Assembly: GCA_032718475.1 (NCBI GenBank)
Contig: JAUCBJ010007272.1
Location: forward strand, 1 to 48,879
DNA from: Nemertoderma westbladi
Lineage: Eukaryota > Animalia > Xenacoelomorpha
Direction: 5' to 3'
DNA length: 48,879 nucleotides
The first letter of the stretch is position 1; the number at the start of each line of letters is the position of its first letter. Below are positions 21,259 to 48,879 of this stretch, piece after piece. The notes beneath the pieces were generated by a model that searched no databases, was not told where the DNA came from, and saw only the letters and a list, made by a program, of their open reading frames with translations. The translations under genes were made by a program, and so were the position numbers.

Positions 21259-21260
21259 CA

Positions 21261-22582
21261 TACTACTAGGATCGGCATGCTGCATTGCAGCTGCATTTTT
21301 AAGAATGCTGTGCCGGCTTGTCAACAAAATTGCACTGCCACAACTCCCTATCACCCATGACATTTGCTAGATCATCCGCATTTTCAAGGCCAGTGTCCTT
21401 TAAGATGCGTCTCAAGAAAGTCATGGGCTGTCCACCATGCTTATTCACTCCATGAGGCTGCCAAAGTACAAGATTATGCACTGGCTGGTCCTCACGGCGA
21501 AAGCAATGTCCTGCAAAGCGGAGGCGATTTTGTTCTAGTGTCAAGCTTGGGGGAACCAATGAGACACCTCCAATGTTATATAGTGTCTGGTTGGAGATGT
21601 GTGCATTCTACTTGACACAATGAACCCGGCGTAGCATTCTTGTGAATGTGCCATCCAGATATTTGGTGTCCTCAGCAGTTAGAGTCCAGCATGGACTCCC
21701 ATAGAGGAGTACTGGAACTACTGCTGCTCTAAATAACCGGACCTTAAGTTTCCGATTAATTCTCGGTGACTTCCAAATCCTGGAAAGCCTATTCAAGACT
21801 GCCCATGCTTTTCCCTTACGTATTCGAAGGTCCTCACCTGACTTCCGGATCCATGATCCCAGGTAACAGAAGTCATCCACATGCTCAAGCATACCATCTT
21901 TTGAGCTTATGCTCATCCGATCAGAGACTTGCTGAGGACTTTCAAAGTTAACTGTAAAAATTTTGGTCTTTCTGGAGTTAATAAAAAGACCAACACTAGA
22001 AGCAGCATGTTCTAATGAGCTGAGGAGCCGTTGGGCTCCCTCTAGTGTTTCTGAGAGTACTCCTAAGTCATCAGCAAAGTCTAGATCAGTTAGGTACTTG
22101 GCAGGATTTCCTCGACTTCTGGAGCCAGTAGGTGGAGTTATCATCACCCCATCATCATTATGATGATCTAAGGACATGCGTAGAACATAGTCAACAACAA
22201 TTATGAACAAGAATGGTGCAAGTGTGTCTCCCTGGAGGACGCCCCATAACACTTCAAATGGTTCTGTGTCACCGTCAACAGTAGACACAAATGTTGGCGA
22301 ACCATCGTATACTGATCTGATTGCTGCAATAATTTCATCAGGAATCCCATATAATGAAAGTATGCTGAACATACGTGAGCGAGAGACTGAATCAAAGGCC
22401 TTGAAGAAGTCAACAAAGATAACAGCCAGATGCCTGTCTTTCTTTATTGATAACTCATCTAAGTGCCAAAATGGGCTCCATGGTCCCACGACCTTTACGG
22501 AACCCATTCTGATTTCCACGGAGCAGTCTCTCAATGGGACCCCTGATGCGATTTTATAGAATTATATTGTATAGCTTTGCAG
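21261..22582 (-). mobile_element. RTE family A 3' portion with RT core
   Basis: GVLQGDTLAPFLF, LDFADDL, FCYLGS, VPVLLYG; (TAG)n tail at 21261. Confidence 0.9.
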
Positions 22583-24195: not shown

Positions 24196-24588
24196 TGCAC
24201 TTCACGAGGATGCTATGCCGGGTTCATTGTGTCAAGTACAATGCACACATCTCCAACCAGACACTATATAACATTGGAGGTGTCTCATTGGTTCCCCCGA
24301 GCTTGACACTAGAACAAAGTCGCCTCCGCTTTGCAGGACATAGCTTTTGCCCTGAGGACCAGCCAGTGCATAATCTTGTGCTTTGGCAGCCTCATGGAGT
24401 GAATAATCATGGTGGACAGCCCATGACTTTCTTGAGACGCACCTTAAAGGACACTTTCCTTGAAGATGCGGATGATCTAACAAATGTCATGGGTGATAGG
24501 GAGTTGTGGCGGCGCAATTTTGTCGACAAGCCGGCACAGCATTCTTAAAAATGCAGCTGCAATGCAGCATGCCGATCCTAGTAGTAGT
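24196..24588 (+). mobile_element. RTE family A short 3' fragment
   Basis: Matches the family 3' end and finishes GCCGATCCTAGTAGTAGT. Confidence 0.88.
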
Positions 24589-27173: not shown

Positions 27174-27609
27174 TCCATGGTGGGCTCTAACTGCTGTGAG
27201 GACACCAAATCTCTGGATGGCACATTCACAAGAATGCTACGCCGGGTTCATTGTGTCAAGTACAATGCACACATCTCCAATCAGACACTATATAACATTG
27301 GAGGTGTCTCATTGGTTCCCCAAACTTGACACTAGAACAAAGCCGCCTCCGCTATGAAGGACATTGCTTTCGCCATGAGGACCAGCCAGTGCATTATCTT
27401 GTGCTTTGGCGGCCTCATGGAGTGAATAAGCATGGTGAACAGCCCATGACTTTCTTGAGACGCATCTTAAAGGACACATGCCTTGAAGATGCGGATGATC
27501 TAACAAATGTCATGGGTGATAGGGAGTTGTGGTGGCGCAATTTTGTCGACAAGCCGGCACAGCATTCTTAAAAATGCAGCTGCAATGCAGCATGCCGATC
27601 CTAGTAGTA
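27174..27609 (+). mobile_element. RTE family A short 3' fragment
   Basis: Family 3' end with TAG tail; probable 12-bp TSD ATTGTAG(T/G)GCTG (27162-27173 / 27610-27621). Confidence 0.87.
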
Positions 27610-27789
27610 ATTGTAGGGCTGACGTCGATAATTGGTGGCTGCCCAAGCAAGTTTCAGAAGTGATATTTCAATTTCCCAACACGTTTTCAGCTTTAGGAGC
27701 TCCTTCTTTTCCAACTTCATTTCCAGTTTCCTTTCCAATCAGATACCTAATTTACGGTTTGACATGTAAGTCTTTGACTTTTAGTTGCT

Positions 27790-29420
27790 ATTTAATTTGT
27801 ATCTTGAGGAAATCTTAATATCTTCTAAATTTCATATTCAGTATCTTTCTTGCCATGATACATACTATTGCCGAATAGGTTTCTGAGGAATATGCTTTTA
27901 TTATATTCAGACAGATAGAAGTTGCAGACTGGTCTTTATCTATTGATTGTAGTACATCAAAATGGTTTTGAACTTTTACGGTATATTCATCCCCTTTACT
28001 GCAGTATATTTCTCGGTTTCTCAAAGATATAAAAAATATACACATTATAATAATTAATTCGCTTGCTTGTCTTGAGTTTACTGACTCTCGTACTGAGGCT
28101 GATCTCTGCAGTCAAGATTATGACGTTCTAACACAGATTGGGTTGGACGTGCTGTATCGTATACTACTACTACTAGGATCGGCATGCTGCATTGCAGCTG
28201 CATTTTTAAGAATGCTGTGCCGGCGTAGCATTCTTGTGAATGTGCCACCCAGAGATTTGGTGTCATCAGCAGTTAGAGCCCAGCATGGACTTCCATAGAG
28301 GAGTACTGGAACTACTGCTGCTCTAAATAATCGGACCTTAAGTGTCCGATTAATTCTCAGTGACTTCCAAATCCTGGAAAGCCTATTCAAGGCTGCCCAT
28401 ACCTTTCCCTTACGTATTCGAAGGTCCTCACCTGACTTCCGGATCCATGATCCCAGGTAACAGAAGTCATCCACATGCTCAAGCATACCATCTTTTGAGC
28501 TTATGCTCATCCGATCAGAGACTTGCTGAGGACTTTCAAAGTTAACTGTCAAAATTTTGGTCTTTCTGGAGTTAATAAAAAGACCAACACTAGAAGCAGC
28601 ATGTTCTAATGAGCTGAGGAGCCGTTGGGCTCCCTCTAATGATTCTGAGAGTACTCCTAAGTCATCAGCAAAGTCTAGATCAGTTAGGTACTTGGCAGGA
28701 TTTCCTCGACTTCTGGAGCCAGTAGGTGGAGTTATCATCACCCCATCATCATTATGATGATCTAAGGACATGCGTAGAACATAGTCAACTACAATTATGA
28801 ACAAGAATGGTGCAAGTGTGTCTCCCTGGAGGACGCCCCATAACACTTCAAATGGTTCTGTGTCACCGTCAACAGTAGACACAAATGTTGTTGAACCATC
28901 GTATACTGATCTGATTGCTGCAATAATTTCATCAGGAATCCCATATTATGAAAGTATGCTAAAAATACGTGAGTGAGAGACTGAATCAAAGGTCTTGAAG
29001 AAGTCAACAAACATAACAGCCATTGATAACTCTTAAATTATCCTTCTAAGTGCCAAAATGGGCTCCATGGTCCCACGACCTTTACGGAACCCATTCTGAT
29101 TTCCACGAAGCAGTCTCTCAATGGGATTCCTGATGCGATTTAATAGAATTCTATTGTATAGCTTTGCAGCAATCGAGATCAATGAGATTCCCCGAAAAGA
29201 ACCATAGAGTGTTAGGTTGCCCTTCTTGGGAACTGGCACCAACTTATAGCTCAGATACTGAGGCTGATCTCTGCAGTCAAGATTATGATGTTCTAACACA
29301 GATTGGGTTGGATGTGCTGTATCGTATGCCTCACAGTTGATAATGCTGTTTCTCCACCTTTTGCTGATAATGACGTAGCCCAACTGCTCGGGTATTAAAA
29401 GGTCCACAGCTTCCAATTAC
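27790..29420 (-). mobile_element. Decayed RTE family B fragment interrupted by a family A copy
   Basis: KRWRNSIINCEAY and GACAAGCAAGCGAAT are shared with the 10090-11030 element. Boundaries approximate. Confidence 0.6.
28163..29255 (-). mobile_element. RTE family A copy with a 72-bp flanking duplication
   Basis: RT core QGD/FADD and TAG tail; direct repeats at 28091-28162 and 29256-29327 with 2 mismatches. Confidence 0.9.
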
Positions 29421-30625: not shown

Positions 30626-30688
30626 CTATAAAAAAAATTGTTTTAATAATAATTATACATTAATGATAATTAAATAATTAATAATTAT

Positions 30689-31853
30689 TGTAAAAGCTTT
30701 TATGGGATAACTGATACGTTTGCCTTTGCTGGCCAGTTCCCCCCCGGTCGCTAGAATACTCTAAAAGGGATCTATAGTTAAAATAGTGCAAGCTACCAGC
30801 TTATTGGCTGATGTGCTGTACGGAGGTATCTGGGCTCCGTTTAATCGGCCAACCAGCTTAGGGAGGTTGCCTCAGCCCTGCTGCCCGTGTCGGCCAATAG
30901 AATTTGAGTGGGCGTTGATTTCGACCTATCCCAGAGCTACTGAACTGAATTTCCTATCTCTATGCTCATCCTCTGTGTTGGACGGGAGCTTCGGGGAATA
31001 AGGGTAGTTGGTATCCTCGTATAGTCAGCTAGTCATATGATTCTTCATATGATTCTGTTGTTGTGTTCCCATTTTTCGCCATAACACCGGCTTTTTGGGA
31101 AGAACTCTAGTAAAACTGCTTAAATTATCGAAAGTATAACTGTTATCTAATCAGCTAATCATATTGTTTGTACTGTTATTTACCGTCAGTTTATTAATTG
31201 TATCTATTTGTTGATGAATTATTGCCCTTTGGAGAATACGGATAAATCACCCAAATTTCCCAATTTTCTTGATACACTACAGGTTAGAGAGACAGGCTAT
31301 ACATAACAATTGCGATTTATATCAATGTGGTGTGTATTGAATCTAATGTTATTTAGCAGACCCTACATGAGTCAATTGCTGCTCTCTTTATGTGTGATCA
31401 AATTTACTGACGGTCGGCAGAATAGTGTGCATGATTGTGATTGGTAACAAAGCATTTCCTAAAGAATGCGCCTTATACTTTAATCATAAGCAGTATCGTT
31501 GCGTTTAGTATAAGTCCTAGTTCTGTTTAAATAGATAGAGCGCCATGTCCTAAAGGAACTGTTAATATTTCCCGAAAGCCAATAATATCTGTCAGAAATT
31601 AATTATTAACGATCTATCGAATAATACAATAGGTTTACACTGCAACCTTACACTGCAATAATAAAATTTAAGCAGCCGAATTCAGCCTCCCGGGTGTAGA
31701 TCCATCGGGTGAATGATCGCGCATGGGCTGGCTTCGGGTAATGTTTTGTTTATTAGCATAAAATATTGTCGTATGCTAAAGGTGTTTTAATTAACTAAAA
31801 GACATATAAATTTTGGCAGGTTAAACTGCTAAAGGTCTTCAAAAGCGCGAACA
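30689..31853 (+). repeat. 5' LTR (1165 bp)
   Basis: TGTAAAAGC...GCGCGAACA; direct repeat of 44726-45889. Confidence 0.96.
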
Positions 31854-31919
31854 ATAACAGTTAACGATCTTATTGCAGTAAGCAATAAGGTTGCAAAATA
31901 CCGTAGTGACCGGTAAACC

Positions 31920-32050
31920 TGAACCGGTACTTCTGTAGGTCAGTAGGCCCAACTGCCAGAACCGGTACTGCTGTAGGTCCGTAGGTCCAACTGCCAGAAC
32001 CGGTACTTCTGTAGGTCTGTAGGCCCAACTGTCCTAACCGGTACTGCTGT
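31920..32050. repeat. About 38-bp tandem repeat (~3.5 copies) in the element leader
   Basis: GAACCGGTACT(T/G)CTGTAGGTC.GTAGG(C/T)CCAACTGCCA units. Confidence 0.85.
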
Positions 32051-34090
32051 ATAAGTACATTAGTATTATTCGAATTTGATTAGTGCATACCGGTAGGCTG
32101 TTTAAGAGATTAGGGACTGTATACCCCTTGTTTCTTTTGGAGCTTACTTATTTCTGTCGGTTTTATTTCCTAGTAAGTTAATATTGAGCTGAAGACGTGT
32201 AAGTCTGCTCAGATTGTTCAGATAATTGTAGGCTGAACTGCTGTCTGACTGTTGTTGGGTTTGGAGAGATTACGGCATGTGTAGAGTTTGTCTGATAAAG
32301 TGCCGTTAGTAAGTTGGGGCAGCCATATGCTGTAAGGTCAATCCCCTCTTAAAGAATAAGTCGTACTACCGTGTTAGAACGCATACTAACTAACTGTTTC
32401 AGAATCTGCATATACTGTAGTTTATTTAGGCTTGATCGTAGTCTGCCAGTGTTTTAGCCTGTGTTTGTTTGTGTGGTCTGTTCAGGTACCGTAATAGTTA
32501 TTACTCAGATATTTTGTAGGCTGGATTGTTGTCTAGCTATTCTTAGGCCTGAAGGGATTGCTGCGTGTGTAGAGTTGGTCTGATAAAGTGCCGTTAGTAA
32601 GTTGGGGCAGCCATATGCTGTAAGGTCAATCCCCTCTTAAAGAATAAGTCGTACTACCGTGTTAGAACGCATACTAACTAACTGTTTCAGAATCTGCATA
32701 TACTGTTGGCTTGATAGTAGTCTGCCAGCGTTTGGTTTGTATTTTGTTTGAGTATTCTGTACGGGTAGCGTAATATTTATTATTCAGAGTTTATGCGATT
32801 ATTCGCAACATTCATGTCCCCAAGTTTATTCCTACAGTAATTGTGCTTGTTATACATACCGTTATAGTTAAATTAACCCCTGTACTACACGGGCTGCTTG
32901 GCGTAGGACAAGACTGGTGACTTTGTGCTCTGGTCACTCCAGCAGATGCCGCGGTTCTTTTAACTGTTCAAGTATATTTAACTACTGATTATTTGTTATA
33001 CCGGTACTTGTACCTAATTTAGGGTTTAGCGTACAGTGCTTCCGAGAGTAATTAGTGTGTAGGCAGTATATTTGTGTTGTAAAGTGGTTGATAGGCACAT
33101 TCGCTAGCTCTATTAACTTCTAGGTAGGAACACTCCGTGATACATAACGTAGTACCTATAGCAATACGGTTATAGGTCGTCAGGCGGTGGTATTTTCCTA
33201 TCTGGACAGTGCAGTATATTTACTACTACTTATTATTTCAAATACCGTAGTACCCTGTCCGTTGTAATAAACCAGAAATCTAACCCTTTGTTAGGCTGGT
33301 TTGTAGACTTCCTGTAAAATTACCCTAAAAAATTCGTACGTAATATTTTGTTGTGTTTAATTAGAGAATTAATCTCACCCATATCGTAAGTAATTTGTAG
33401 TATTAAGTAACTTAAGTAAATTAGAATTATCAGTTTTAGTGTCTCAATAAGTAACACTTCACTGAGAGCGTACAGCTTCTGTGTAGTGACTCCCCCAGAA
33501 ATAATAACATTTATTTCAAATATTGACAAAACCCATTTTTAACGGGTATATAAATATTATAAATCAACTCAAACGATTTATAAATAGTAGGCCTGTCATA
33601 CAACAACTAGGTCTCAATATCAGTTGAACTACTGCTTAAATAACGGTAACAAAGTAAGTTAAAGTAACTAAGTAACCCTAAAATATTCAGGAATTCAATT
33701 ATTCTAAAAATAATTGACATACCATAGGCTTATTATATTTATCTCTATAAATTTGAGCTGAAATCATACCGGTACTCTGTAATTAATCTAGTCTGTAATT
33801 ATACTTATATATACTATAAGTGTAAGCTGTATGCCGGTATTCACTATAGGCCTACTATATATTTATATATATTTGTGCTAAAATTATATACCGGTACTCT
33901 GTGACAAATCTAGTCTGTAATAATACTTATATATATTATAAGCATACCGGTATTCTAATATATTGTATATATATCACGTTACACCGAGTAACGGTATCGG
34001 TAATAAATCGCTAGGCTTGCGGTCATACTGAATTACCAGACTTGCTTTAACTGAAACTATAGTAGTAGGCATTCAACTGTATAGCTAAAC

Positions 34091-37000
34091 ATGTCTGACA
34101 CTCAGCAAAACCTGTCAGACAGTCTGATCGATACAACTATCTGTGACACAGATAGGAGTGTGGAGCGATTAAGAAAGGAGTTCAGCTCCCCTCCTACTGC
34201 AAAAAAGGTCATCCCTCCAGTAGTATCAGACCCTAGGCTAATCCACCATAGGTCCATCATAGGCGCTCGGGCACAGGTCAAACGGAACCAAGAGGCAGTT
34301 GTCCCATCGCAGCAACATCTTGGTCAAGAACCTACTTCCCAGCGACCCGATAGCTCCAGTAGTTCGGATACAGTAGAGCTGACCCCCGAAAGCGGAGTGC
34401 AGATAGCTGCTACAGTCTACTCGGACCCCCTTCTTACCCTTCCTGCTGCAGTGCTAACTACTATATACATTGCGGTGGAGGAACATCAAGCCGACTGGGC
34501 GAGAAATAAGCGAGCGACCCAAAATAATTATGCGGGATACGCCAGGGAAGAATTGATGTCTATTGTCGAGTCACAATGGAACTTTCCCGGACTCGGACTC
34601 CCGTTGGATCTGTCCGAGGCTACTTGGGAAGATATACACAGGATGGGAGTGACTAAAGATACAATGGATCCAGCTGTTTGGAAGAGGTCGGCAGCAGGAT
34701 ATGTGCAGGGATTCTTCGGCTCCTTGGAGCGATTGGAAGAACAACTGTTTCGACAACCTCAAGGACCTCAAGAGCAGGAAGAGCTGCTATACCAAATACG
34801 CGAAAGAACCCTACGCATACGACTAATCCTCTCATCCTTTGAGGAAACTTCCAAAAGAAGACAGGACACGTCGCTGCAGGTTGCTGTCAAAACTTGGTTA
34901 CATCGGGTAGATCTCAAAGTACAGGAAACGGCCCAGTGGAAATCCCAGCTGGCTGAGAGATCAACCTGTGAAGAACAAACTGATGTCACCCTTTCTCAAG
35001 CGGAAAGCGAAGAGACCGCCGAGAAACCGCGAACTAGAGACGCTATCGACATTTATTTGTCCGACTATCAGCGATTCCTAGGAGACGAAGAGTTGAGGAG
35101 ACGGCTGTCTGGACTTTCCCCTAATAGTGAAGGAACCAAGCTTGTGTTGGACTCAATCGATGCCGAAATGTTAGCTGCAAACCAAGCTGAATGTGATGAA
35201 AAACTCCGCCTCACTAGAGTCCGAGAAGAACAAGTAAAGAAAGAACTGATAGAGAAAAGAAAGGTAGCAGCAGCAGCGGCGGCGGAAGCAGAAGCAGAAA
35301 GAAAAGAAGCAGAAGCCGAAAGAAAAGCGGCAGAAGCAGAAGCAGAAAGAAAAGCGGCGGAAGCCGAAAGAAAGGCAAAAGCGGCAGAAGCAGAAGCCGA
35401 AAGAAAAGCGGCAGAAGCAGAAGCAGAAGCAGAAAGAAAAGCGGCGGAAGCCGAAAGAAAGGCAACAGTGGCAGAAGCAGAACGGAGAGCGTCTGAGGAG
35501 ACTATCCAACTAGAGTTGGAAAATCTGCAAGAGACGCAAGACAGTATAAATAAACAGTTTACTGCTAATCAGATGCAGATGATGAGAAAATCTACTCCCA
35601 AGCGCCAGGGATACACATCCTCGGAGGAAGGCGATACTACCGATCCTGAAGGCGGAGGAAATAGATCTCATCTAAGTAGGCGTAGAAAAACATCTTACCG
35701 TCGCAAATTGCCTGATTTACCCCCAGCTGTTAGAAGACAGCTAGCTAGCACAGACTTGAGTAGTATAGAACCTACAGCCCAAAGTATTAAGGTCCAAAGA
35801 CTCTCTACAATAGTTGATGAGCCTGAGATAATTAGGCCTGTCGTTCCAAAAGTCACTTCTGTGTTAGAGACCCCTGTACTTCCAGAGCTTAACTCTAAAT
35901 TCCCTTTACATAGTACTACACTGCCTGTACCCGGTGGAACAGTCCAAGAGAATATCCCTGTCCAGATAGCAGAGAGAGAAATTAAAAATTTGTCTCCCGT
36001 CGTCCCGCGTCAGCCCGCTACTATGTTGGCGACTCCCGCTTCGGCGGTTGAGTGGGTGGAAGAGGGACGGCGTGGGATGAATCTTCTGCTGGGACAGATG
36101 CAGGAGACTGTCCACCAACTTAAGGGAACAGTGAGGGAAAGTAGAGCAGAGTTGCAAGAAGTGCAGCAAAGTATCGCGCTAGAACGCGACAAATTAGTCA
36201 ATATACAAAAGGGCATACCAATACCCCCTGTAACATTGTGTCAACCTGTTAGGTCTGAAGTATTACATGCGCAAGGTGTGGAGCCTACACGCATCTATAC
36301 TGCTAGTGAAGTTGAAACTCCTATAGCAAACCCTATTAAGGGTGATTATAGACCTGTTATTAATGATATTCCCTATAGACCTGATAATGATCCGAGAAAT
36401 TTATATACCGATAATTCGATATTAAATAACACGATGGCCCAAGAAAGCTTTACGCGTCAGATGGCTAGAACAGAAGACCGCCAAGCGGTCAAAGTGGGAG
36501 AGATCGTCAAATTCAATGGAGATGAGATGAAATGGTTACCTTTCAACGAATATTACAAAGATAGCATACAGAACTCTGTACTATCTAACGGAGAGAAACT
36601 TAGATTCCTCATCAAGTGCTTGGAAGGACCTCCTAAGTTAATGGCGTTAAAGTTTATTGGACATCCAGAAGGATTAAGACAAGTTTGGGATACATTAAAC
36701 ATCAGGTATGGTAACAAGGATAACATAGCTAAGTATTTGTATGCAAAATTAGTAGCCCCCCGACACTTCCTTAGTAGTGGGATTATAGAGTTTTCCGATG
36801 AAATTCAAGAGATCTGTAGACAACTGGACTGGTTAGGTAAGTCGCATGAATATCAGAGTTCCATGGTTATTGGAGCCGTAGTCTCTACTTTACCAAAGGG
36901 TGGAGTATGTACACGCTGGGACAAGAAAGTGTTGTACATGAATGAACAACAACGAAGAAGTCCTACCATGGCTGATCTCATGTCCTTCTTAGATAGTGAA

Positions 37001-38566
37001 GTAAAATTACAACTCATAAGGCAGTCCAGAGAGAAAACATCGGAAAATAAGGTAAGTGAGAAACCCGTTTCTAGGAGAAGGATAATACCAGTGTGTTATA
37101 CTGACGACGGCGAAAGCCAAGCTTCTCAAGAAGAGGACAGCGGGAAAGACACAGCAAAATCTTACTATGACAACAAGACCTATAAAGACGTAAGTAAATA
37201 CAAGTCTCGAACCAGTGACAGGAGAGAACAGGTAACAACAACTCCTCCTACGTCTCCTAAGAGAATTCACGGAAGAAAGCCCGAAGAAAGAACGAGAGTG
37301 CAGAACGTTAACCAAGTTAAGGTGAGTAACATCAAACCAAAATGTGCGCTGTGCGACGGGCCCCACCATTTGAGTGCGTGTGCTGAATTTCTAAAGAAAT
37401 CCCTTGTAGACAGACGTACAGTCCTGTGGAATAAGCGGTTATGCTATAATTGCCTCAGATCAGGACACCAACGGCGAACCTGTTACTCCGACATAAAGTG
37501 TGCAAAGTGTGGCGCGAAACATCACATCTTGTTACACAGTGAGTTCGAACGAGACAAACTGAGTCAGGTAAGTGAGCCCGAACTACATGTCCAATTCAGT
37601 GATGTAAACGACACTGATCAAGAATCTGAGATGGAAGGATTCTATACTGACGAATTCTCCGACGCCAACGAATCCTGTTATCTAATCAATACCGCAGTGT
37701 ATCGAGCACTTACTTATGAAAAGGACACCAACAATGAGTTTCCCCCAACTACTTTTGCCAAACAACCATCTTGGAAAGCTCCAACTTCCAACGTAGGAAT
37801 CAGAGAATTTCCTGTAGTGCAGGTAAGAGTTCACGGTCTTAACAAAAGTTACATAGTGAACGCCCTCCTTGACTCCGGCAGCACAGGAACATTCATCGAT
37901 CAAGAACTAGCCGAAGATATCTTTGCTGGACAACCCAAGTTCCGGACTAAATTGAATATGTCAGGAATTATGCAGGTTTGGAAATCTACCCTAACGGCAG
38001 ATTACTATGTAGGTGTGTTGTCCACCCCCCAGGATAAATTAGGAGCACAAGGTATAAGGTCGGTAAAAATGGTGGCTATAAAGAACTTCGCTACTACCCA
38101 AGCAGACCTTTATAATTGGGACGAGGATGAGAGCATCCAACATCTTAAGATACCTCGATTCCAGACAGATTATCCTGGAGTGCAAATACTCATCGGCCAA
38201 AACGCGCATGAGGCGCTCGAGACATTGGAGAAACGGCCTGCTCAACCGCAGCCACTACAAACCTATGCGGTAAGAACTAGAGTAGGTTGGAACTTCACTG
38301 GCCCTTCCCGTAGAACTCTCAAAGAGAGATTACCTCAACAACAGGTATACCAAGTAAAGGGGGAAGTGGAGAGCAGTGATGTGGACGATCCAACTGAGGG
38401 AACACCATACTCCTCAGATAATGACGATATAAACTCCAATGTAGATCAATGGAGACATTGCCTTGGGACGATTAATCCAGCCGACATCGCTTCCAGAGGA
38501 GCAACTCCTCAAGAACTGATAGATACTCCAGGCTGGTTAGGTGGATCCGACTCCTTAAGTAAATAA
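34091..38566 (+). CDS. gag-pro: BEL/Pao Gag-protease polyprotein (DUF1759-like Gag, three zinc knuckles, aspartic protease), ending in an RNase H tail relic
   Basis: KFNGDEMKWLPF...EKLRFLIKCLEG; CALCDGPHHLSAC / CYNCLRSGHQRRTC / CAKCGAKHHILLH; ALLDSGSTGTFI; AVRTRVGW; then WRHCLGTINPADIASRG. No RT motifs. AEAERKA coiled-coil repeat at about 35266-35490. Confidence 0.93.
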   Translation: MSDTQQNLSDSLIDTTICDTDRSVERLRKEFSSPPTAKKVIPPVVSDPRLIHHRSIIGARAQVKRNQEAVVPSQQHLGQEPTSQRPDSSSSSDTVELTPESGVQIAATVYSDPLLTLPAAVLTTIYIAVEEHQADWARNKRATQNNYAGYAREELMSIVESQWNFPGLGLPLDLSEATWEDIHRMGVTKDTMDPAVWKRSAAGYVQGFFGSLERLEEQLFRQPQGPQEQEELLYQIRERTLRIRLILSSFEETSKRRQDTSLQVAVKTWLHRVDLKVQETAQWKSQLAERSTCEEQTDVTLSQAESEETAEKPRTRDAIDIYLSDYQRFLGDEELRRRLSGLSPNSEGTKLVLDSIDAEMLAANQAECDEKLRLTRVREEQVKKELIEKRKVAAAAAAEAEAERKEAEAERKAAEAEAERKAAEAERKAKAAEAEAERKAAEAEAEAERKAAEAERKATVAEAERRASEETIQLELENLQETQDSINKQFTANQMQMMRKSTPKRQGYTSSEEGDTTDPEGGGNRSHLSRRRKTSYRRKLPDLPPAVRRQLASTDLSSIEPTAQSIKVQRLSTIVDEPEIIRPVVPKVTSVLETPVLPELNSKFPLHSTTLPVPGGTVQENIPVQIAEREIKNLSPVVPRQPATMLATPASAVEWVEEGRRGMNLLLGQMQETVHQLKGTVRESRAELQEVQQSIALERDKLVNIQKGIPIPPVTLCQPVRSEVLHAQGVEPTRIYTASEVETPIANPIKGDYRPVINDIPYRPDNDPRNLYTDNSILNNTMAQESFTRQMARTEDRQAVKVGEIVKFNGDEMKWLPFNEYYKDSIQNSVLSNGEKLRFLIKCLEGPPKLMALKFIGHPEGLRQVWDTLNIRYGNKDNIAKYLYAKLVAPRHFLSSGIIEFSDEIQEICRQLDWLGKSHEYQSSMVIGAVVSTLPKGGVCTRWDKKVLYMNEQQRRSPTMADLMSFLDSEVKLQLIRQSREKTSENKVSEKPVSRRRIIPVCYTDDGESQASQEEDSGKDTAKSYYDNKTYKDVSKYKSRTSDRREQVTTTPPTSPKRIHGRKPEERTRVQNVNQVKVSNIKPKCALCDGPHHLSACAEFLKKSLVDRRTVLWNKRLCYNCLRSGHQRRTCYSDIKCAKCGAKHHILLHSEFERDKLSQVSEPELHVQFSDVNDTDQESEMEGFYTDEFSDANESCYLINTAVYRALTYEKDTNNEFPPTTFAKQPSWKAPTSNVGIREFPVVQVRVHGLNKSYIVNALLDSGSTGTFIDQELAEDIFAGQPKFRTKLNMSGIMQVWKSTLTADYYVGVLSTPQDKLGAQGIRSVKMVAIKNFATTQADLYNWDEDESIQHLKIPRFQTDYPGVQILIGQNAHEALETLEKRPAQPQPLQTYAVRTRVGWNFTGPSRRTLKERLPQQQVYQVKGEVESSDVDDPTEGTPYSSDNDDINSNVDQWRHCLGTINPADIASRGATPQELIDTPGWLGGSDSLSK

Positions 38567-38680
38567 GAAGAAGAATGGCCTCCTCATCTTACCACAGCAG
38601 AAATTAGACAGGCCAAGGGAGCGGAGAAAGTAACACAACAACTCAATCGCCCAGCTAGTCGTTTATGTTTACTGGAAAGA
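38567..38680 (+). pseudogene. Pol relic: end of the RNase H region fused to the extreme C-terminus of integrase
   Basis: After the stop the same frame reads EEEWP...LNRPASRLCLLE, matching the BEL ...WP and RPxxxLxxL terminal motifs. Confidence 0.7.
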
Positions 38681-40393
38681 GACCGAAAACTGTCCGGAAA
38701 CTATGGAAGGCAAGATACTCTTCCTACGACCACTTCCCTAATCCGACAAATATCTAGGGACTCCATAACGTAATAACATATGGAGTGGGCGTGTGACTAT
38801 ATCATTTTATATTTGTTTTTATTTTATATTTATGTATGTATTATTATGTACGTTATTATAATCGTTTTTATTTAATTTTATTTAGTAAAATGTTATTTTA
38901 GAATATTTAGTAAATTAGTGCAATATATTAGTGTTTATTACGTATTTAATTACTTGTAATATATTTAGTGCGAAGGCAAGAAATAATTATTTTCTCTTTC
39001 CTTACTGTCCGTATTATATTATAAATGCGAGACTATAGTAAGATGACATGTCAGTACTTCTTAAAGTACAATAAAGCCACTACTATATTTAAGTATTATT
39101 GGTAGGCAGAGTATTAGGAATGCAAAGTTCAGATCCTCGTGTCTCGGCTAAACCAAGCTCTGGGTAGACCTTGGAAACGACTTGCCTCTTCACACTGACA
39201 TTGCTTCGTGCGATATTGCTCTTCTACCTTATAACAAATAATACATATAGTAGCGTGATGTCCCTCTAACAGTAGCGTAAATCGCAAATAAATCTGTTAA
39301 ACTTTTTGACCATCTGTAATTCTAGTCGATTAAGATATCGTGGCACCCACCGATATACTTGAAAAACAAATTCTAGAATCAGTGGTTAACATCCCCAGAC
39401 AAGTTCTGGAATAAATCGGTGCCCATCCTAAATATTAATTTAATATTTATTAAAATCTGTAAAATCCCGATCCTTTAAAATTTCTAGTCAATTAAGATAT
39501 CGCAGTATTTACCGATATTCTTAGAAAGACTATTTTATAGAATTAAGGATCCTAAGTCCCCAGATATGCTCTGGAATAAAATTTGTGTCAATTTAACATC
39601 AAATAATAAAATTCACGGGAATAAATTTAAATTCATATTCAAATGAATTTCATAAATTGTCATTTTGTGCAATTTATAACATTCCCAAAATTCCAGTAAT
39701 TAATAGATCATGGGAGCGGAGATTCATATTGAGTGTACTAGAGTGCGAGAATCTCCAACATATAGTCAATAGCCGATAAAATTTATAAAATCATGCATAA
39801 AGAGGATATTGACAATTAAAGAATTACTATTAAATAGCATCCCAGATCTGTATGCATGAGAATTACCCTAATTCTACCGCTAGTTTTCCATAATGTCACC
39901 ATGGCAACACCCACGCTAGAATTAGAAGCAAGTTAAAGGAACAATAAAAAGCTTGCCCATTGCGTAGCATAAGAGTATACATAGCGCACTATTAGTATCC
40001 AAGGATACATAGTAATAACGTGACATTCTGGAAGACACTGACTAACGGACAAATGGTATGCATGTGTGCAGTAAGTAATGATTGTATGGAATTTGTGCGT
40101 TTATAGGTGAATGTTACTACTAAAGTGTGTTTACAGTAGCTAATCGCAATTGTAAAGTAGCCCTAACTCTACCGAGATAACCTCAAGTGGATTCAAGCCT
40201 TTGGGACGGACAGTGGTGGGACTTGTGCCGGTTATCGTTGTCGTGCTGTTGCTACATGTTGGCGTAAACACCGCGACAACGGTACATCGGCGCTGAGAAA
40301 CCCACTGTCCGGGGGCAAAAGCCTAGTAGGCAGCGACGCTCGCTTGCCTAAAATATTAACTCCTATTGATATTAATAAACTCAGATAGCAGAT

Positions 40394-43300
40394 ATGACGG
40401 AATTGATAGAGGATGACCTTGGTATCAGGGAGCGATATACTCTACCTTTGCAAGCGTTTGTGGATAGCTTGATACGCGGTGAAGCCGATCCGACTATTAC
40501 GGAGGACGATGGTCGTTATATCGAACCGCCGATGTCCCAGGAACAACTTACGCGTGAATTGGACTATAGAAAATTCACCGCTCGCTATACGAATCGTAAT
40601 GGTACGTATATGGACTTCTTAACTACCGGCCATCCTACCGATTTACATGATACGGAAGATGTAGACACCGAAAGGGAAATGGTTTTATTTAAATATCATG
40701 CCCAGCGGAATCGTAATGATAAACCGAGAATAGAACACGAGAACTCTATTCGCAACCTACTCGACAGAGAAAACGTTGAAGAACCCGATAAGCGTATCAA
40801 CTTCAACGACTACTTGGAATTTTTGAGAGAAACCTATCTCAATATTGCCAGTCAACAGAACCTAGAGACTCGATATCCTCAAGGTATACATCACGATCCC
40901 ATGGTAGAACTCAAACGACTCTATTTCACCATGATGTATCTTACCGCAGATCGTCCACTGCCTGTTGTCCCGGACAGCTTTGAACAAATGGAAGAGTATT
41001 GCAAAACTGGAGAACGATCACCCGCGTTTCCTCTGCAGGACGTACGTCTTTGGTATTATTGTGACTCATGTCCTAGACCTAACCAGCAAACGGAAAGACA
41101 TAAACATCCGCGGAGACGTTGTGCTAAACACAGTTTTACGCGTTATACTTACGGGAGTTTCGAGCGAAACCTGTTCGACGTATCACCTACGATCGCCCGT
41201 CTAAAACGATCGCTAAATAAACCCATGATCAGAGTTCCGGAATACTCGGTCAGGCCTCCCCATTTCCCCGTGAGACCTCAAACTCTTGATCCTAACAGTA
41301 TCACTGATCCTCCCGAGTTATACTCACTGTTCAAAGAATTGGTGTTACCCGAGCAGTTAATCGGTGGTGTTCCAGCGGTAGGTTCGTTAGATATTCGACC
41401 ATCCTATTTAACCGGATTGGGACGCGGGCATCTAACATCGCCATTTAATCCTTACAATCGGCCAGGATTAACTCCGATACAACCTGCCACGGAAGTCGAG
41501 GAGAGTGTCATCAGAAACGCTCTAGACGCCATCCGACAGAAAATCGGAAAGGGAACCCAGGATTTTCTAGAGAAACGTAAATTACAGCAGCAGATCCAAT
41601 CGGTCAAAGAGTTAGCCTTGCCGCAGTTTGATAGAGAAATCCAAAACCTCGAAGAGGACATCGAGCTTGGACGTACGTATTCCCTACAGGAGTTTCTAGA
41701 AGAACGCTTACAGAAACAAGCGGAGGAAAATCAACTAGAGGAGAAACATACGGAAATGGATGAGAGAGAAGAAGCCGCTTTAGCCCAACCCGAAGTTCAG
41801 ATACTCATAACCGATCTCTACTCTAAAACCGTCCGTCATCCCTCGATGGTTCCGCATTTCGGAGACAAACTTTTCGCAAAGATACAACCCCAACCGGTTG
41901 ATATCAGCATAAGATCGCAAAATCTTATCGCTGACGCTCCTATGCTACAGCGTCCGCCAATCGAGGCCGCTCGAGTTGACGGTATACTCGTTGAACCTCC
42001 GGACAATCGAGCGGATCTTGTCCGTCGTATGGTACACGATGTCAACATACGTGCTAGACCTTTACAGAACTCTTTTTATGGAATTAAAGATCACCCTTAT
42101 TACGTTAATCTGACTCAATATTATATGGTAAAACCAGAAGATCCGACGCATAATTTAAAGTTTCTACCACTAATAAATCCTCTGGACATTGTCGAACTCG
42201 AACAATTACAAAAACATCTGGATCAGTTAGTAAAGGTAAACTCATTTCGAAAACCATATAACGTTTCTCGAATAGAGAAGGATACAGAACCTCCTTATAA
42301 TCTCGATGGATTTATTAAAACTCGATTAGTCCATTGGAATCTAGACGTATTATTCGAGGAGGAGAAAATACAAAGATATGGAAATGTGGAGACGTATACC
42401 ACTCGATACATGAAGTATAGTGATCTCCCTGACGCTAATCAATGCGCCACCTTGTGGCATCCGGTAGGGATGACCCTCGAGAACGCCACCAAAGAGTGGA
42501 ATGAAACTCTTAATATCATTGAGATGTATGGCGTTGTTACTTACGATAACGAAGGTAGCGTTCCAATCAGAGAATTAGGAACTACGCGCATGATACATAT
42601 ACGCGGATTAGCTGGTTCCACTCACGTGTTTACGCGAGCGTGTTCCGACGTGATCGATTATTCCTTTGAAACTCTCACCGATACGCAAAAGAATCTCCGA
42701 CATGGACAATTCGAACTCGCGCAGCGTTACGTCATTGACACCGAACGCAAACCGGCCATGGGTATCGATGGATCGATGTTACCCCAGCCCGTTCTCGAGA
42801 TGTTATTCAACGAAAGAATCATTAAAATCGGCTCAGCTGTTTACGGAGATCTCCAAAACGACTTTCGGAATATGGAAAATATCCCCTATCCTTTCGTGGA
42901 TACTCAGCTGATAGCTCCTTGGGCCGAAGGCCGAGGTTTCTTTCGCACCATGTATGCTAATGCGTCTAGCAACATTACAAAGGTGCAACGAACTTCCATC
43001 GGACATCTTGCTTTTCAGGAATACGGATGGAATTTCAAGGTCGGAAATCCCATCAACTATCAACAAGTATACGGAGACCATTATTCTCGATTATACTTTG
43101 ACGGACCGTTGACCGCACCTGGCGCCGTGTATAGCTTCATGAGTGTTCCACTCCGCCCCTCCTTAGCTATCTACACGATCTTCGAAAACACCGCACTTTC
43201 CGGTTGGCTAGCCGATGTGTGCAGTCGTACTATACGCGCCCATCCATTAATCCTTGGGACCAAACTCGCTAAGCTAGATGAACATAATAAATTCATCCGC

Positions 43301-44647
43301 TTTGAATGTTTCCGACGGTTTTTAACCCCGTTTCGCAACGTGGATAGCCAATTCAAAGACCGCGCTTTGACCAAGCTCAGCTTAAGAGACTCGGCTGCGG
43401 AGAAGTTAGATAGCGCTGGATTTGCTATTTTCAAAGACATTTGTATAATAAACATGCACTCCTCTGTTATCCAAAGACCTCGAATCCCCACAGGTTATTC
43501 GGTCGTGGAAATTCAGACAGTAGGTCCACTTGAGGAGACGGCCATGCCTACCTCAACTATACAAGGGGAAGACGAACCCGTATGTTTAGAATCTGAAGAG
43601 ATTCAGCCCCCCACGTCTCGGAGTAGCGATAGCGACTACATATTGGAATGGTATCAAGGTCCACAGTGTCTTACTGCGTATGATTATCGCTATGCCAATT
43701 ATGTTTCTCGACAACGTTGTCGGCTGTGCGCATCGAGAGACCATATTACGTCTATGGACACCAACGATCTCTGTTCCTATTTCCACGAGCAACCGTCGAT
43801 GGAAATCTATTGTGCATATTGTCGGCTTAATAATTTGCACATTTTTGCTGTCTGCCCCCAATTTATGACTCAATGCCATCATTGTCAATTAAAAGGACAC
43901 GCCAGCTTTGATTGTCCCTTTAACCATGATTTAGAGAGCGTAGATGAAATGATTGTACTACGTTATATCAGAGCTTGGGAAGCGAACGCTGATTTACATT
44001 GTGATTCACGCCATCGCTATTACCCTGGACGCGCTTACGAAGGAGTTTATGCGTTCCATCCTTATTTGTTTGCCTCCGTCGAGCAGAAATCACGCCTATC
44101 AAGTTACGAACTACTGAAGCGCGTTGGAGAATGTATTTCAACCAAATATGTACGCAAATTTCTCAGGAGCATTAATCCGAGTGACATCAATTCTTACAAC
44201 TTAATAAACTTTATCCGTCAAGATCCGGCCTATGGAGACTTATTTGTCAACTCACACCCCGAGTTACAGGAAGTATATCGACGGCCTTACGAGTATCGAG
44301 CCCGCGAACGCGAGTTGGAAAGAACCATTAAACCAAGGAAGTTTCTAACTACCTATGGTCCACCCACGGCCCTCGTTCAGACCACTCGTAAAGGACCCGT
44401 AAGAGCGGCTGTCTTGAAACGAGCTCTCAAAGCCGTTAGACCCCTCTCCCCGGACGTGGATGTCAATCAACCCGGTACTTCGACCGGCGGATATACCGAT
44501 CGTAATCCCATACCTTCTGATGCAATCATATTGCACCCTTCACCCAGGAGTTATAGCCCTCCTCGTAAAGTGGCTCGCCCCAAAGAGAAAAGGACTCTTG
44601 CTAGCTTTAAAAAACTGCGTAAACGCCGTCCGCGCAAGAAAGACTAA
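40394..44647 (+). CDS. 1417-aa accessory protein with a DEDDy-like 3'-5' exonuclease domain, Cys/His zinc knuckles and a basic C-terminus
   Basis: VVTYDNEG (D718/E720), LPQPVLEMLFNERIIKIGSAVYGD (D819), FVDTQ, PLRPSLAIYTIFE (Y927/E931); CRLCASRDH, CAYCRLNNLHIFAVC, CHHCQLKGHASFDC; KKLRKRRPRKK. The ORF is certain; the domain call is by motif recognition. Confidence 0.8.
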   Translation: MTELIEDDLGIRERYTLPLQAFVDSLIRGEADPTITEDDGRYIEPPMSQEQLTRELDYRKFTARYTNRNGTYMDFLTTGHPTDLHDTEDVDTEREMVLFKYHAQRNRNDKPRIEHENSIRNLLDRENVEEPDKRINFNDYLEFLRETYLNIASQQNLETRYPQGIHHDPMVELKRLYFTMMYLTADRPLPVVPDSFEQMEEYCKTGERSPAFPLQDVRLWYYCDSCPRPNQQTERHKHPRRRCAKHSFTRYTYGSFERNLFDVSPTIARLKRSLNKPMIRVPEYSVRPPHFPVRPQTLDPNSITDPPELYSLFKELVLPEQLIGGVPAVGSLDIRPSYLTGLGRGHLTSPFNPYNRPGLTPIQPATEVEESVIRNALDAIRQKIGKGTQDFLEKRKLQQQIQSVKELALPQFDREIQNLEEDIELGRTYSLQEFLEERLQKQAEENQLEEKHTEMDEREEAALAQPEVQILITDLYSKTVRHPSMVPHFGDKLFAKIQPQPVDISIRSQNLIADAPMLQRPPIEAARVDGILVEPPDNRADLVRRMVHDVNIRARPLQNSFYGIKDHPYYVNLTQYYMVKPEDPTHNLKFLPLINPLDIVELEQLQKHLDQLVKVNSFRKPYNVSRIEKDTEPPYNLDGFIKTRLVHWNLDVLFEEEKIQRYGNVETYTTRYMKYSDLPDANQCATLWHPVGMTLENATKEWNETLNIIEMYGVVTYDNEGSVPIRELGTTRMIHIRGLAGSTHVFTRACSDVIDYSFETLTDTQKNLRHGQFELAQRYVIDTERKPAMGIDGSMLPQPVLEMLFNERIIKIGSAVYGDLQNDFRNMENIPYPFVDTQLIAPWAEGRGFFRTMYANASSNITKVQRTSIGHLAFQEYGWNFKVGNPINYQQVYGDHYSRLYFDGPLTAPGAVYSFMSVPLRPSLAIYTIFENTALSGWLADVCSRTIRAHPLILGTKLAKLDEHNKFIRFECFRRFLTPFRNVDSQFKDRALTKLSLRDSAAEKLDSAGFAIFKDICIINMHSSVIQRPRIPTGYSVVEIQTVGPLEETAMPTSTIQGEDEPVCLESEEIQPPTSRSSDSDYILEWYQGPQCLTAYDYRYANYVSRQRCRLCASRDHITSMDTNDLCSYFHEQPSMEIYCAYCRLNNLHIFAVCPQFMTQCHHCQLKGHASFDCPFNHDLESVDEMIVLRYIRAWEANADLHCDSRHRYYPGRAYEGVYAFHPYLFASVEQKSRLSSYELLKRVGECISTKYVRKFLRSINPSDINSYNLINFIRQDPAYGDLFVNSHPELQEVYRRPYEYRARERELERTIKPRKFLTTYGPPTALVQTTRKGPVRAAVLKRALKAVRPLSPDVDVNQPGTSTGGYTDRNPIPSDAIILHPSPRSYSPPRKVARPKEKRTLASFKKLRKRRPRKKD

Positions 44648-44725
44648 CTGTTTAGAGTATTTTTATATTTTAGAAACTGTGATTTTGTATATTTTATAGA
44701 CTTAAATCCCATTTTCTGGGAGCGG

Positions 44726-45889
44726 TGTAAAAGCTTTTGTGGGATAACTGATACGTTTGCCTTTGCTGGCCAGTTCCCCCCCGGTCGCTAGAATACTCTA
44801 AAAGGGATCTATAGTTAAAATAGTGCAAGCTACCAGCTTATTGGCTGATGTGCTGTACGGAGGTATCTGGGCTCCGTTTAATCGGCCAACCAGCTTAGGG
44901 AGGTTGCCTCAGCCCTGCTGCCCGTGTCGGCCAATAGAATTTGAGTGGGCGTTGATTTCGACCTATCCCAGAGCTACTGAACTGAATTTCCTATCTCTAT
45001 GCTCATCCTCTGTGTTGGACGGGAGCTTCGGGGAATAAGGGTAGTTGGTATCCTCGTATAGTCAGCTAGTCATATGATTCTTCATATGATTCTGTTGTTG
45101 TGTTCCCATTTTTCGCCATAACACCGGCTTTTTGGGAAGAACTCTAGTAAAACTGCTTAAATTATCGAAAGTATAACTGTTATCTAATCAGCTAATCATA
45201 TTGTTTGTACTGTTATTTACCGTCAGTTATTAATTGTATCTATTTGTTGATGAATTATTGCCCTTTGGAGAATACGGATAAATCACCCAAATTTCCCAAT
45301 TTTCTTGATACACTACAGGTTAGAGAGACAGGCTATACATAACAATTGCGATTTATATCAATGTGGTGTGTATTGAATCTAATGTTATTTAGCAGACCCT
45401 ACATGAGTCAATTGCTGCTCTCTTTATGTGTGATCAAATTTACTGACGGTCGGCAGAATAGTGTGCATGATTGTGATTGGTAACAAAGCATTTCCTAAAG
45501 AATGCGCCTTATACTTTAATCATAAGCAGTATCGTTGCGTTTAGTATAAGTCCTAGTTCTGTTTAAATAGATAGAGCGCCACGTCCTAAAGGAACTGTTA
45601 ATATTTCCCGAAAGCCAATAATATCTGTCAGAAATTAATTATTAACGATCTATCGAATAATACAATAGGTTTACACTGCAACCTTACACTGCAATAATAA
45701 AATTTAAGCAGCCGAATTCAGCCTCCCGGGTGTAGATCCATCGGGTGAATGATCGCGCATGGGCTGGCTTCGGGTAATGTTTTGTTTATTAGCATAAAAT
45801 ATTGTCGTATGCTAAAGGTGTTTTAATTAACTAAAAGACATATAAATTTTGGCAGGTTAAACTGCTAAAGGTCTTCAAAAGCGCGAACA
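44726..45889 (+). repeat. 3' LTR (1164 bp)
   Basis: By eye differs from the 5' LTR by 2 substitutions and a 1-nt indel; preceded by PPT 44718-44725. Confidence 0.96.
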
Positions 45890-46423
45890 ATTATTCAATA
45901 TTAAATTAATTTTATTAAAAATAATCTTTACTAAATTTTTTAGGAAACATTAATATACGTTAGAGTAAATGTAATTCATTAATTTATTGTATTTGGAAAA
46001 TATAACAGTAACTACTATACTACACACACATAAATAAAATAGAAAAACTGATTACACTAGTACAATTATTGAATAATTATTTCATTAAACTAAATAGAGT
46101 ACTTGACTAATGTTTTAAACTAAGCAAGTTATATAAGGAATTATTTTTTTTATTGTGAGTTTCAACAACTAACAGATAGAGACACAATTAATTTGGTTGC
46201 AATGGGAAGAAGTCCAGGAGAAGGTCACAAACGGTCAGATACCTATTACATTATAGTAAGTAATAGTAACATTTTTTAAGATTTACATAAGTTTGACATA
46301 GTAACAGCTTTTGTCCGGCTGTGAACGATTTAACAAATTTTTTATTAGTAAGCTAACACACTAAAGTAAATATTTCAAAATTGTAACGAAATTGCCACCA
46401 GGTACAGTTAGTGCTGAACTCAC

Positions 46424-48350: not shown

Positions 48351-48394
48351 TTGGGAATAAAATAAATGTAATTGCTAAACTACAGTTTTATTGT

Positions 48395-48879
48395 GTATTA
48401 TAATACTATACTTTATTATAATACTATACTTTATTATAATACTTATACTTTATTATAATACTATACTTATATTATATTATACTTATACTTATACTTATAA
48501 TACTATACTTTATTATTATACTATACTTATATTATAATACTATACTTTATTATAATACTTATACTTATACTTATATTATACTATACTTATACTTATACTA
48601 CTATACTTTATTATAATACTATACTTATACTTATAATACTATACTTATACTTATACTTATACTTATACTTATACTTATAATACTATACTTATACTTATAC
48701 TTATACTATACTTATACTTATACTACTATACTTATACTTATAATACTATACTTATACTTATATATACTTATACTTATACTTATACTACTATACTTATACT
48801 TATAATACTATACTTATACTTATACTACTATACTTATACTTATACTACTATACTTATACTTATACTTATACTTATACTT
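48395..48879. repeat. AT-rich compound microsatellite (TATACT-based)
   Basis: Reiterated TATACT / ATACTATACT units running to the window end. Confidence 0.95.

Follow-up and report, generated by a model that had tools for sequence, protein, structure and literature searches.

A predicted DEDDy-type exonuclease gene at the env position of a BEL/Pao-type retroelement in Nemertoderma westbladi

Why would a retroelement bounded by long terminal repeats (LTRs) carry what looks like a nuclease gene at the position of env, the envelope gene? The question is raised by contig JAUCBJ010007272.1 of Nemertoderma westbladi, which was analyzed over a window of 48,879 nt (the whole stretch of DNA under study). 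Between the LTRs of a BEL/Pao-type element lies an open reading frame (ORF) of 1417 codons without a stop, termed ORF3 (40394-44647, forward strand; read from the sequence). Its protein of 1417 amino acids (aa), P0001, is predicted to join a DEDDy-type 3'-5' exonuclease domain to three zinc knuckles. The ORF itself, its place between the LTRs, its motifs, a homologue of the same architecture (P0003) and an excess of synonymous differences among copies leave hardly any room for doubt.

A preliminary description of this DNA had reported a stop-free frame of this length between a pol relic and the polypurine tract (PPT). This is confirmed, and at the base composition of ORF3 such a frame would arise by chance with a probability of ~1e-33. 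The exonuclease motifs, the three knuckles and the basic tail that it listed are all found where it had put them. Its view that the product is not an env protein also stands. An env glycoprotein was rejected because, with an acidic N-terminus and a 19-aa hydropathy of at most 1.27, there is neither a transmembrane segment nor a signal peptide. The parts of ORF3 are as follows.

40394..44647, forward strand: ORF3, intronless, encoding 1417 aa, in the place of env
40394..42400, forward strand: N-terminal ~670 aa, no family match, with a charged stretch at aa ~375-465
42476..43243, forward strand: domain predicted to be a DEDDy-type 3'-5' exonuclease, aa ~695-950, carrying two insertions as compared with RNase D
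42545..42553, forward strand: putative ExoI, D718-x-E720, aligned with P0003 and RNase D; register varies with settings
42848..42850, forward strand: putative ExoII, D819, in an LP..IIKIG...D segment, from MAFFT (72/72 settings) and hhalign
43172..43186, forward strand: putative ExoIII, Y927-x3-E931, from BLAST with P0003; Glu where RNase D has Asp
43718..43915, forward strand: three CCHC-type zinc knuckles; P0003 has three too
44560..44644, forward strand: basic C-terminal tail resembling a nuclear localization signal, by composition alone

A DEDDy fold for aa ~700-945 is very probable, given several weak, concordant tests. The NCBIfam RNase D model matches aa 798-843 (E value 0.0015, 17.8 bits). 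A full HMMER pass of aa 601-1217 against 1.84 billion representatives returned a single match, P0003 (E value 4e-7, 30% identity). This protein of 648 aa matches ORF3 in the order of its DxE, ExoII Asp, YxxxE and three CCHC knuckles, and it shares the equivalents of D718, E720, D819, Y927 and E931 at an overall identity of 25-30%. Against PF01612, P0003 itself scores 11.9 bits (E value 0.2), where the cut-off is 23.6 bits. A two-sequence profile combining ORF3 and P0003 matched 36 of 301 bacterial genomes (E<=0.05), in 34 cases at the ExoII segment. Thirty of these bacterial loci were fetched, yielding 28 RNase D genes, one chemoreceptor and one short frame (left unscanned).

Twenty-one of the 28 recovered RNase D domains, to which the ORF3 domain is ~16-22% identical, were aligned and used for two further comparisons. 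These are not independent tests, since the RNase D sequences had been picked by the query itself. Using hhalign, ORF3 and P0003 matched the RNase D domains with a probability of 95.7 and an E value of 1e-8 over 56 columns. A hidden Markov model (HMM) of the 21 domains gave P0001 26.6 bits, compared with at most 1.8 bits for 500 shuffled sequences. The ESM Atlas offers a search that is alignment-free and independent of the query-picked sequences; there aa 680-1030 scored 0.92, and 25 of 30 matches belong to PF01612. Taken together, NCBIfam, P0003, the bacterial RNase D loci, hhalign and the Atlas support the proposal in the preliminary description that the element bears a DEDDy-type exonuclease with CCHC knuckles. 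As an observation that offers a lead on origin only, giant viruses supply the best named Atlas clusters (3'-5' exonuclease proteins of ~360 aa), and an unnamed fungal cluster comes first among the matches.

Other searches for relatives returned little. A word-index search with P0001 aa 640-1200, whose length range excluded longer and shorter proteins, gave no real match among 2628 candidates. The same search with alignment A1 gave 0 of 3671 and missed P0003 too, indicating low sensitivity, and with P0003 as query it returned P0003 itself alone. Scans of individual loci for an ORF3-like nuclease were negative in metagenomes (0/369), viruses (0/129) and prokaryote genomes (0/138). A degenerate ExoII pattern hit 37 loci, none of them genuine (0/37), and tblastn against phages and plasmids, like PHROGs, gave only noise with ORF3.

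The most secure catalytic position is D819, which falls in the RNase D register in 72 of 72 MAFFT settings; an FVD motif follows at aa 834. For the remaining positions we prefer the D718/E720 and Y927/E931 register because P0003, the closest homologue, conserves both with their flanks. The fourth acid would then be Glu in ORF3 and P0003 alike, where RNase D has Asp. The predicted nuclease is fairly likely to be catalytically competent. Within ExoII, the nearly invariant His of RNase D is replaced by Gly in ORF3; a Gly that follows the ExoII Lys is a feature that we take to resemble WRN/EXD-type enzymes. Orthology with Rrp6 or RNase D was considered and rejected, as no HRDC domain was found by Pfam and Gly/Ser occupies the ExoII His column of RNase D.

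A structural model guided by RNase D rows in the preferred register reached a mean predicted confidence (pLDDT) of 48, with a core of ~60-80, and placed D718/E720 on strand E45-52. Foldseek ranked Egalitarian, EXD2 and RNase D highest for this model, the top five rows being Egalitarian chains (best E value 0.008). VIA-align gave Nibbler a Z of 8.2 over 173 aligned residues (root-mean-square deviation 5.2), tied with many DEDD enzymes. Against viral models, Foldseek returned none at E<=0.001. The guided model is compatible with a DEDDy assignment and picks no subfamily among WRN, EXD, Nibbler and Egalitarian.

Outside the nuclease domain, the three knuckles have the spacings CX2CX4HX9C (the first, with a long His-Cys spacer), CX2CX5HX4C and CX2CX4HX4C. 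In a profile search of PDB sequences they match retroviral nucleocapsid (E value ~1e-3) and Air2 (E value 0.2). The N-terminal ~670 aa have zero matches in Pfam, the ESM Atlas and PDB sequences. A Cys/His cluster at aa 203-246 (41000-41131) in this half, also without a family match, is possibly a zinc site.

Evidence that the domain is under constraint comes from differences among copies in public sequencing runs. Between 42500 and 43240, the best-supported 40 of 153 differences were analyzed, which is not a random sample. Among these 40, 33 lie at third codon positions, and 32 are synonymous while eight are nonsynonymous. The ratio of nonsynonymous to synonymous polymorphism per site (pN/pS) is 0.07-0.10 in the nuclease domain; in a binomial test with a neutral share of 0.28, weighted for transitions, p is 2e-11. 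All five catalytic codons are free of these 40 differences, and the listing for the interval has no indel at 10% or above. The preliminary description had proposed copy divergence as a check, and the outcome is that ORF3 is kept under purifying selection rather than evolving neutrally.

The element that carries ORF3 has the following further parts.

30684..30688, no strand: target-site duplication, left copy, ATTAT
30689..31853, forward strand: 5' LTR, 1165 bp, TG...CA
34091..38566, forward strand: ORF1, BEL/Pao Gag plus aspartic protease (DUF1759, E value 7e-12; Asp_protease_2, E value 0.0025), with its stop within the pol relic
37343..37537, forward strand: Gag triple Cys-His box, CX2CX3HX4C, CX2CX4HX4C and CX2CX3HX4H
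37865..38197, forward strand: protease LLDSG and LIG motifs, from sequence
38456..38677, forward strand: short pol relics, Pfam negative
44718..44725, forward strand: short PPT
44726..45889, forward strand: 3' LTR, TG...CA
45890..45894, no strand: target-site duplication, right copy, ATTAT

This 15.2-kb element is a very recent insertion, because its two LTRs are nearly identical (99.74%, with two substitutions and one indel) and are flanked by the ATTAT duplication. Features of BEL/Pao membership found here are the triple Cys-His Gag, DUF1759, the protease's LLDxG and LIG motifs, the LTRs, the target duplication and the PPT. The RT-RNase H-integrase pol, on which BEL/Pao placement by reverse transcriptase (RT) phylogeny is based, is missing in this copy. 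Pfam finds no RVT or integrase match in ORF1. The relics at 38456-38677, which lack Pfam support, are presumably the end of a BEL RNase H and the end of an integrase. Because the RT and integrase core are absent, the copy is classed as a non-autonomous BEL/Pao derivative. The triple Cys-His box and the LLDSG and LIG protease motifs are described as Pao/BEL hallmarks in the relevant passages of PMC554778.

The family to which this copy belongs is represented in four public runs (four studies, two organism labels) by 118,876, 30,717, 795 and 1,251 contigs. These are 80-99% alike, many just 80-95%, which indicates a large and diverse family, the contig numbers not being a copy number. No RNA run is listed among those containing the element, and X4, an RNA run by guess only, is left out of the evidence. 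Deletion derivatives without the nuclease domain exist, as contigs skip 40756-43566 in run X5 and 42134-44488 in run X1.

Several noncoding or repetitive features accompany these genes. The 2.2-kb leader (31854-34090) holds 38-bp tandem copies (31918-32051) and duplications of 288 bp (32218-32788) and 122 bp (33721-33942). Within gag, an Ala/Glu/Arg/Lys tandem repeat at 35218-35503, likely a coiled coil, varies in length between copies. An AT-rich gap of 1.8 kb (38567-40393) precedes ORF3, with AG dinucleotides right before the ATG as a possible splice acceptor, or else an internal promoter.

How such an element would prime its replication is a related matter. An 18-nt primer-binding site (PBS) complementary to a tRNA 3' end was not found, and TGG is absent within ~100 nt after the LTR. 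Instead, a short complementary pair was noted.

31137..31146, forward strand: 10 nt within the LTR, candidate self-primer, the exact complement of the first 10 nt past the LTR
31854..31863, forward strand: PBS position, lacking TGG and not a canonical tRNA 3'-end site

This pair was found post hoc and its sequence is nearly palindromic. An equally good match occurred in nine of 2000 shuffled LTRs at offset 0 and in 15 of them at offsets 0-3 (post hoc p of ~0.005-0.008); of 12,800 internal 10-mers, 21 find a complement within the LTR. The pairing probability is 0.81-1.0 if the RNA starts at 31137; with a start at 31100 the pair is not formed. A U5 stem-loop precedes the site and a 12-bp hairpin follows at ~31866-31895. 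The pair is a candidate that may resemble the self-priming of Tf1/Tj1. Self-priming is described for gypsy and copia lineages, not BEL/Pao, in the pertinent sections of PMC4600332 and PMC6317226.

What, then, might the ORF3 protein do? ORF3, probably expressed as a separate protein, could be accessory to a BEL/Pao family that was recently mobile, is non-autonomous and has many copies. Its product would be a metal-dependent DEDDy-type 3'-5' exonuclease joined to knuckles that may bind single-stranded RNA. It would presumably act in trans, because contigs skipping most of ORF3 exist. By shortening host silencing RNAs or their precursors, it would allow the element RNA to escape silencing and to be copied by the RT and integrase of an autonomous relative. 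Counter-silencing was chosen because the protein lies outside Gag-Pol, seems dispensable in cis and has cellular relatives in small-RNA pathways; roles of this kind for mut-7 and EXD1 are discussed in a section of Rodriguez et al. 2017 (PMC5408684). Taken as a whole chain, an anti-silencing nuclease acting on small RNAs is a possibility that we adopt tentatively. A more ambitious account is unlikely: in it, a BEL/Pao lineage would have independently gained an active nuclease that destroys or mis-trims host piRNAs or siRNAs, explaining its amplification, perhaps together with self-priming.

A good deal speaks against an active anti-silencing nuclease. Its activity, substrate, expression and silencing role are all putative. 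Every family score is far below its cut-off; that of the NCBIfam RNase D model is curated at 298.95 bits, as opposed to the 17.8 bits obtained. PDB sequence searches with ORF3 find the knuckles only and miss the nuclease domain. In the Atlas, 155-156 of 256 features are shared, where 170 is usual within a family, and 4-10% of shuffled proteins reach 0.9; the count is typical of a distant relative. The preliminary description had called the exonuclease intact, which holds for the presence of the residues and less so for their recognition, as Pfam returns no exonuclease match and all five catalytic residues are in register in just eight of 72 MAFFT settings. One MAFFT run gives an alternative register with D755 and Y913, lacking the ExoI Glu and the ExoIII acid. 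In the AlphaFold and Foldseek check that it had suggested, Egalitarian, EXD2 and RNase D come out on top, yet none reaches E<=0.001. With unaided two-sequence input the fold failed (pLDDT 29), and matches of the guided model are partly circular, given its RNase D rows and hand-selected register. The selection signal may stem from autonomous subfamilies and rests on 40 of 153 differences. Over the whole element, the top-ranked differences are synonymous and nonsynonymous in ratios of 7:7 in ORF3 and 8:8 in gag; most of them are sites where this copy departs from nearly all others. Published statements on Egalitarian and on the rotifer ORFs, given below, also count against it.

Rodriguez et al. 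favor processing of the element's own RNA for the rotifer DEDDy ORFs (in the part of PMC5408684 that deals with function; see also the corresponding part of PMC6431247). Applied here, an active nuclease would be co-packaged via the knuckles, which resemble retroviral nucleocapsid, and would trim the 3' ends of RNA, overhanging primers or the ends of cDNA. The lack of a tRNA-type PBS and the 10-nt complement inside the LTR suggest that priming may be unusual, and a benefit in cis would explain why the gene is retained in a family without RT and integrase. However, as a frame apart from Gag, ORF3 has no guarantee of being packaged, contigs without the nuclease domain exist, and a gene of this kind is absent from most BEL/Pao elements, which replicate all the same (PMC8742986). 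Moreover, Tf1-type self-priming, as outlined in a portion of PMC4600332, is a cut near the RNA 5' end and needs no 3'-5' exonuclease. A function in processing the element's own RNA or primer ranks close behind counter-silencing, while being itself rather doubtful. Another reading gives up catalysis and takes the fold as an RNA-binding scaffold, as in Egalitarian or EXD1, that for example localizes or protects element RNA in the germline. The five Egalitarian chains that head the Foldseek results were solved with localization signals, including that of the I-factor retrotransposon. Egalitarian retains putative catalytic residues that lie ~15 Å from the RNA and are dispensable, according to the structural passages of PMC13186709. 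The Glu for Asp at ExoIII and the large insertions in the domain fit this reading as well. It is nevertheless improbable: the model is of low confidence, Egalitarian is outside the 50 VIA-align rows, Pfam and the ESM Atlas detect no LOTUS-like domain in ORF3, and P0001 and P0003 retain the same acidic residues despite their low overall identity.

Least probable is that ORF3 is a passenger, either a gene captured from host or virus that does nothing for the element or a frame whose DEDDy likeness is a short chance segment. In favor of this, scores are low and come mainly from ~50 residues around ExoII, a young insertion alone could explain an intact ORF, and P0003 is known here as a protein alone. 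Against this, the strong synonymous excess among copies that are 80-99% alike largely excludes a passenger. The base composition of the intronless ORF3 equals that of gag (45.4% and 45.9% GC), a 30%-identical homologue has the same domain order, and the Atlas lends independent support. Of these readings, we retain the counter-silencing nuclease as the working proposal.

Elsewhere in the window, several truncated copies derive from a single non-LTR retroelement; they have RVT_1 matches and short trinucleotide tails and lie at 15389-17380, 21255-22561 and 28118-29247 on the reverse strand and at 24201-24588 and 27197-27616 on the forward strand. A single long ORF at 5576-6985 (forward strand), encoding an F-box and a right-handed beta helix, is likely a host gene. 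A 48-bp tandem array with 37 copies in register and a strong C skew occupies 1898-3900, and an AT-rich short-period array occupies 48370-48879 at the window end.

Comparison with known systems begins with the bdelloid rotifers. A DEDDy ORF3 at the env position is reported for the LTR elements Juno and Vesta and for Athena/Terminon retroelements in the relevant text of Rodriguez et al. 2017 (PMC5408684), and this is restated in passages of PMC5718144, PMC6431247 and PMC6338049. As portrayed there, the rotifer proteins share with ours a separate ORF downstream of pol that replaces env, a DEDDy/RNase D-like domain, the lack of a transmembrane domain and retention of the catalytic positions. They differ in that the carrier here is BEL/Pao, the motif is D-E-D-E rather than DEED, and the protein of 1417 aa bears three CCHC knuckles and an N-terminus of 670 aa without family match. 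Purifying selection is found here, whereas the same account describes near-neutral variation in the env and GDSL ORFs sequenced. No rotifer protein was among the matches of the ORF3 homologue searches, in which the Juno, Vesta and Athena sequences were not compared directly.

Cellular PF01612 nucleases (RNase D, WRN-exo, EXD1/EXD2, Nibbler/Mut-7 and Egalitarian) share with ORF3 the ExoI DxE, the ExoII Asp, the DTQ strand, a putative PL-x6-YxxxD/E motif and a predicted RNase H-like topology. ORF3 differs from them by its two insertions, the Glu at ExoIII and the fused knuckles. Likenesses to the Belpaoviridae are the TG...CA LTRs, a Gag with DUF1759 and the triple Cys-His box, a protease with LLDSG and LIG motifs, and a short PPT (PMC8742986 and PMC554778). 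In contrast to belpaovirids (PMC8742986), the element measures 15.2 kb instead of 4.2-10 kb, lacks RT, integrase and a tRNA-type PBS, and has a nuclease as its third gene in place of an env-like one. The belpaovirid profile of the International Committee on Taxonomy of Viruses (ICTV) lists only env-like third genes (PMC8742986), which bears out the earlier statement that this is not a standard BEL/Pao domain. The word "exonuclease" has 0 occurrences in PMC3118150, PMC554778 and PMC13524379, and no BEL/Pao DEDDy ORF was found in the literature searched, with Repbase, Dfam, GyDB and supplements outside its scope.

Novelty is reduced because DEDDy ORF3s at the env position have been published for bdelloid LTR retrotransposons. 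The arrangement is already known from these rotifer elements, and what differs here is the BEL/Pao carrier, the lack of HRDC, the ExoIII Glu, the N-terminus and the evidence for selection. An exonuclease-like extra domain may have been reported in the Cer (BEL/Pao) elements of C. elegans around 2000-2001; if it was, the BEL/Pao aspect is not new.

Since 2017 it has been a standing question what leads retroelements to carry DEDDy nucleases, for which the rotifer report showed neither activity nor selection. In the present case the superfamily is a different one, the family has many copies and was active recently, the purifying signal is clear, and a defined domain of ~250 aa lends itself to expression and assay. 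If the nuclease is aimed at host small RNAs, it would be a rare counter-defense enzyme of an animal transposon; if aimed at the element's own RNA, it would represent an extra step in LTR replication. Repeated acquisition of such nucleases by unrelated LTR lineages would point to a general advantage.

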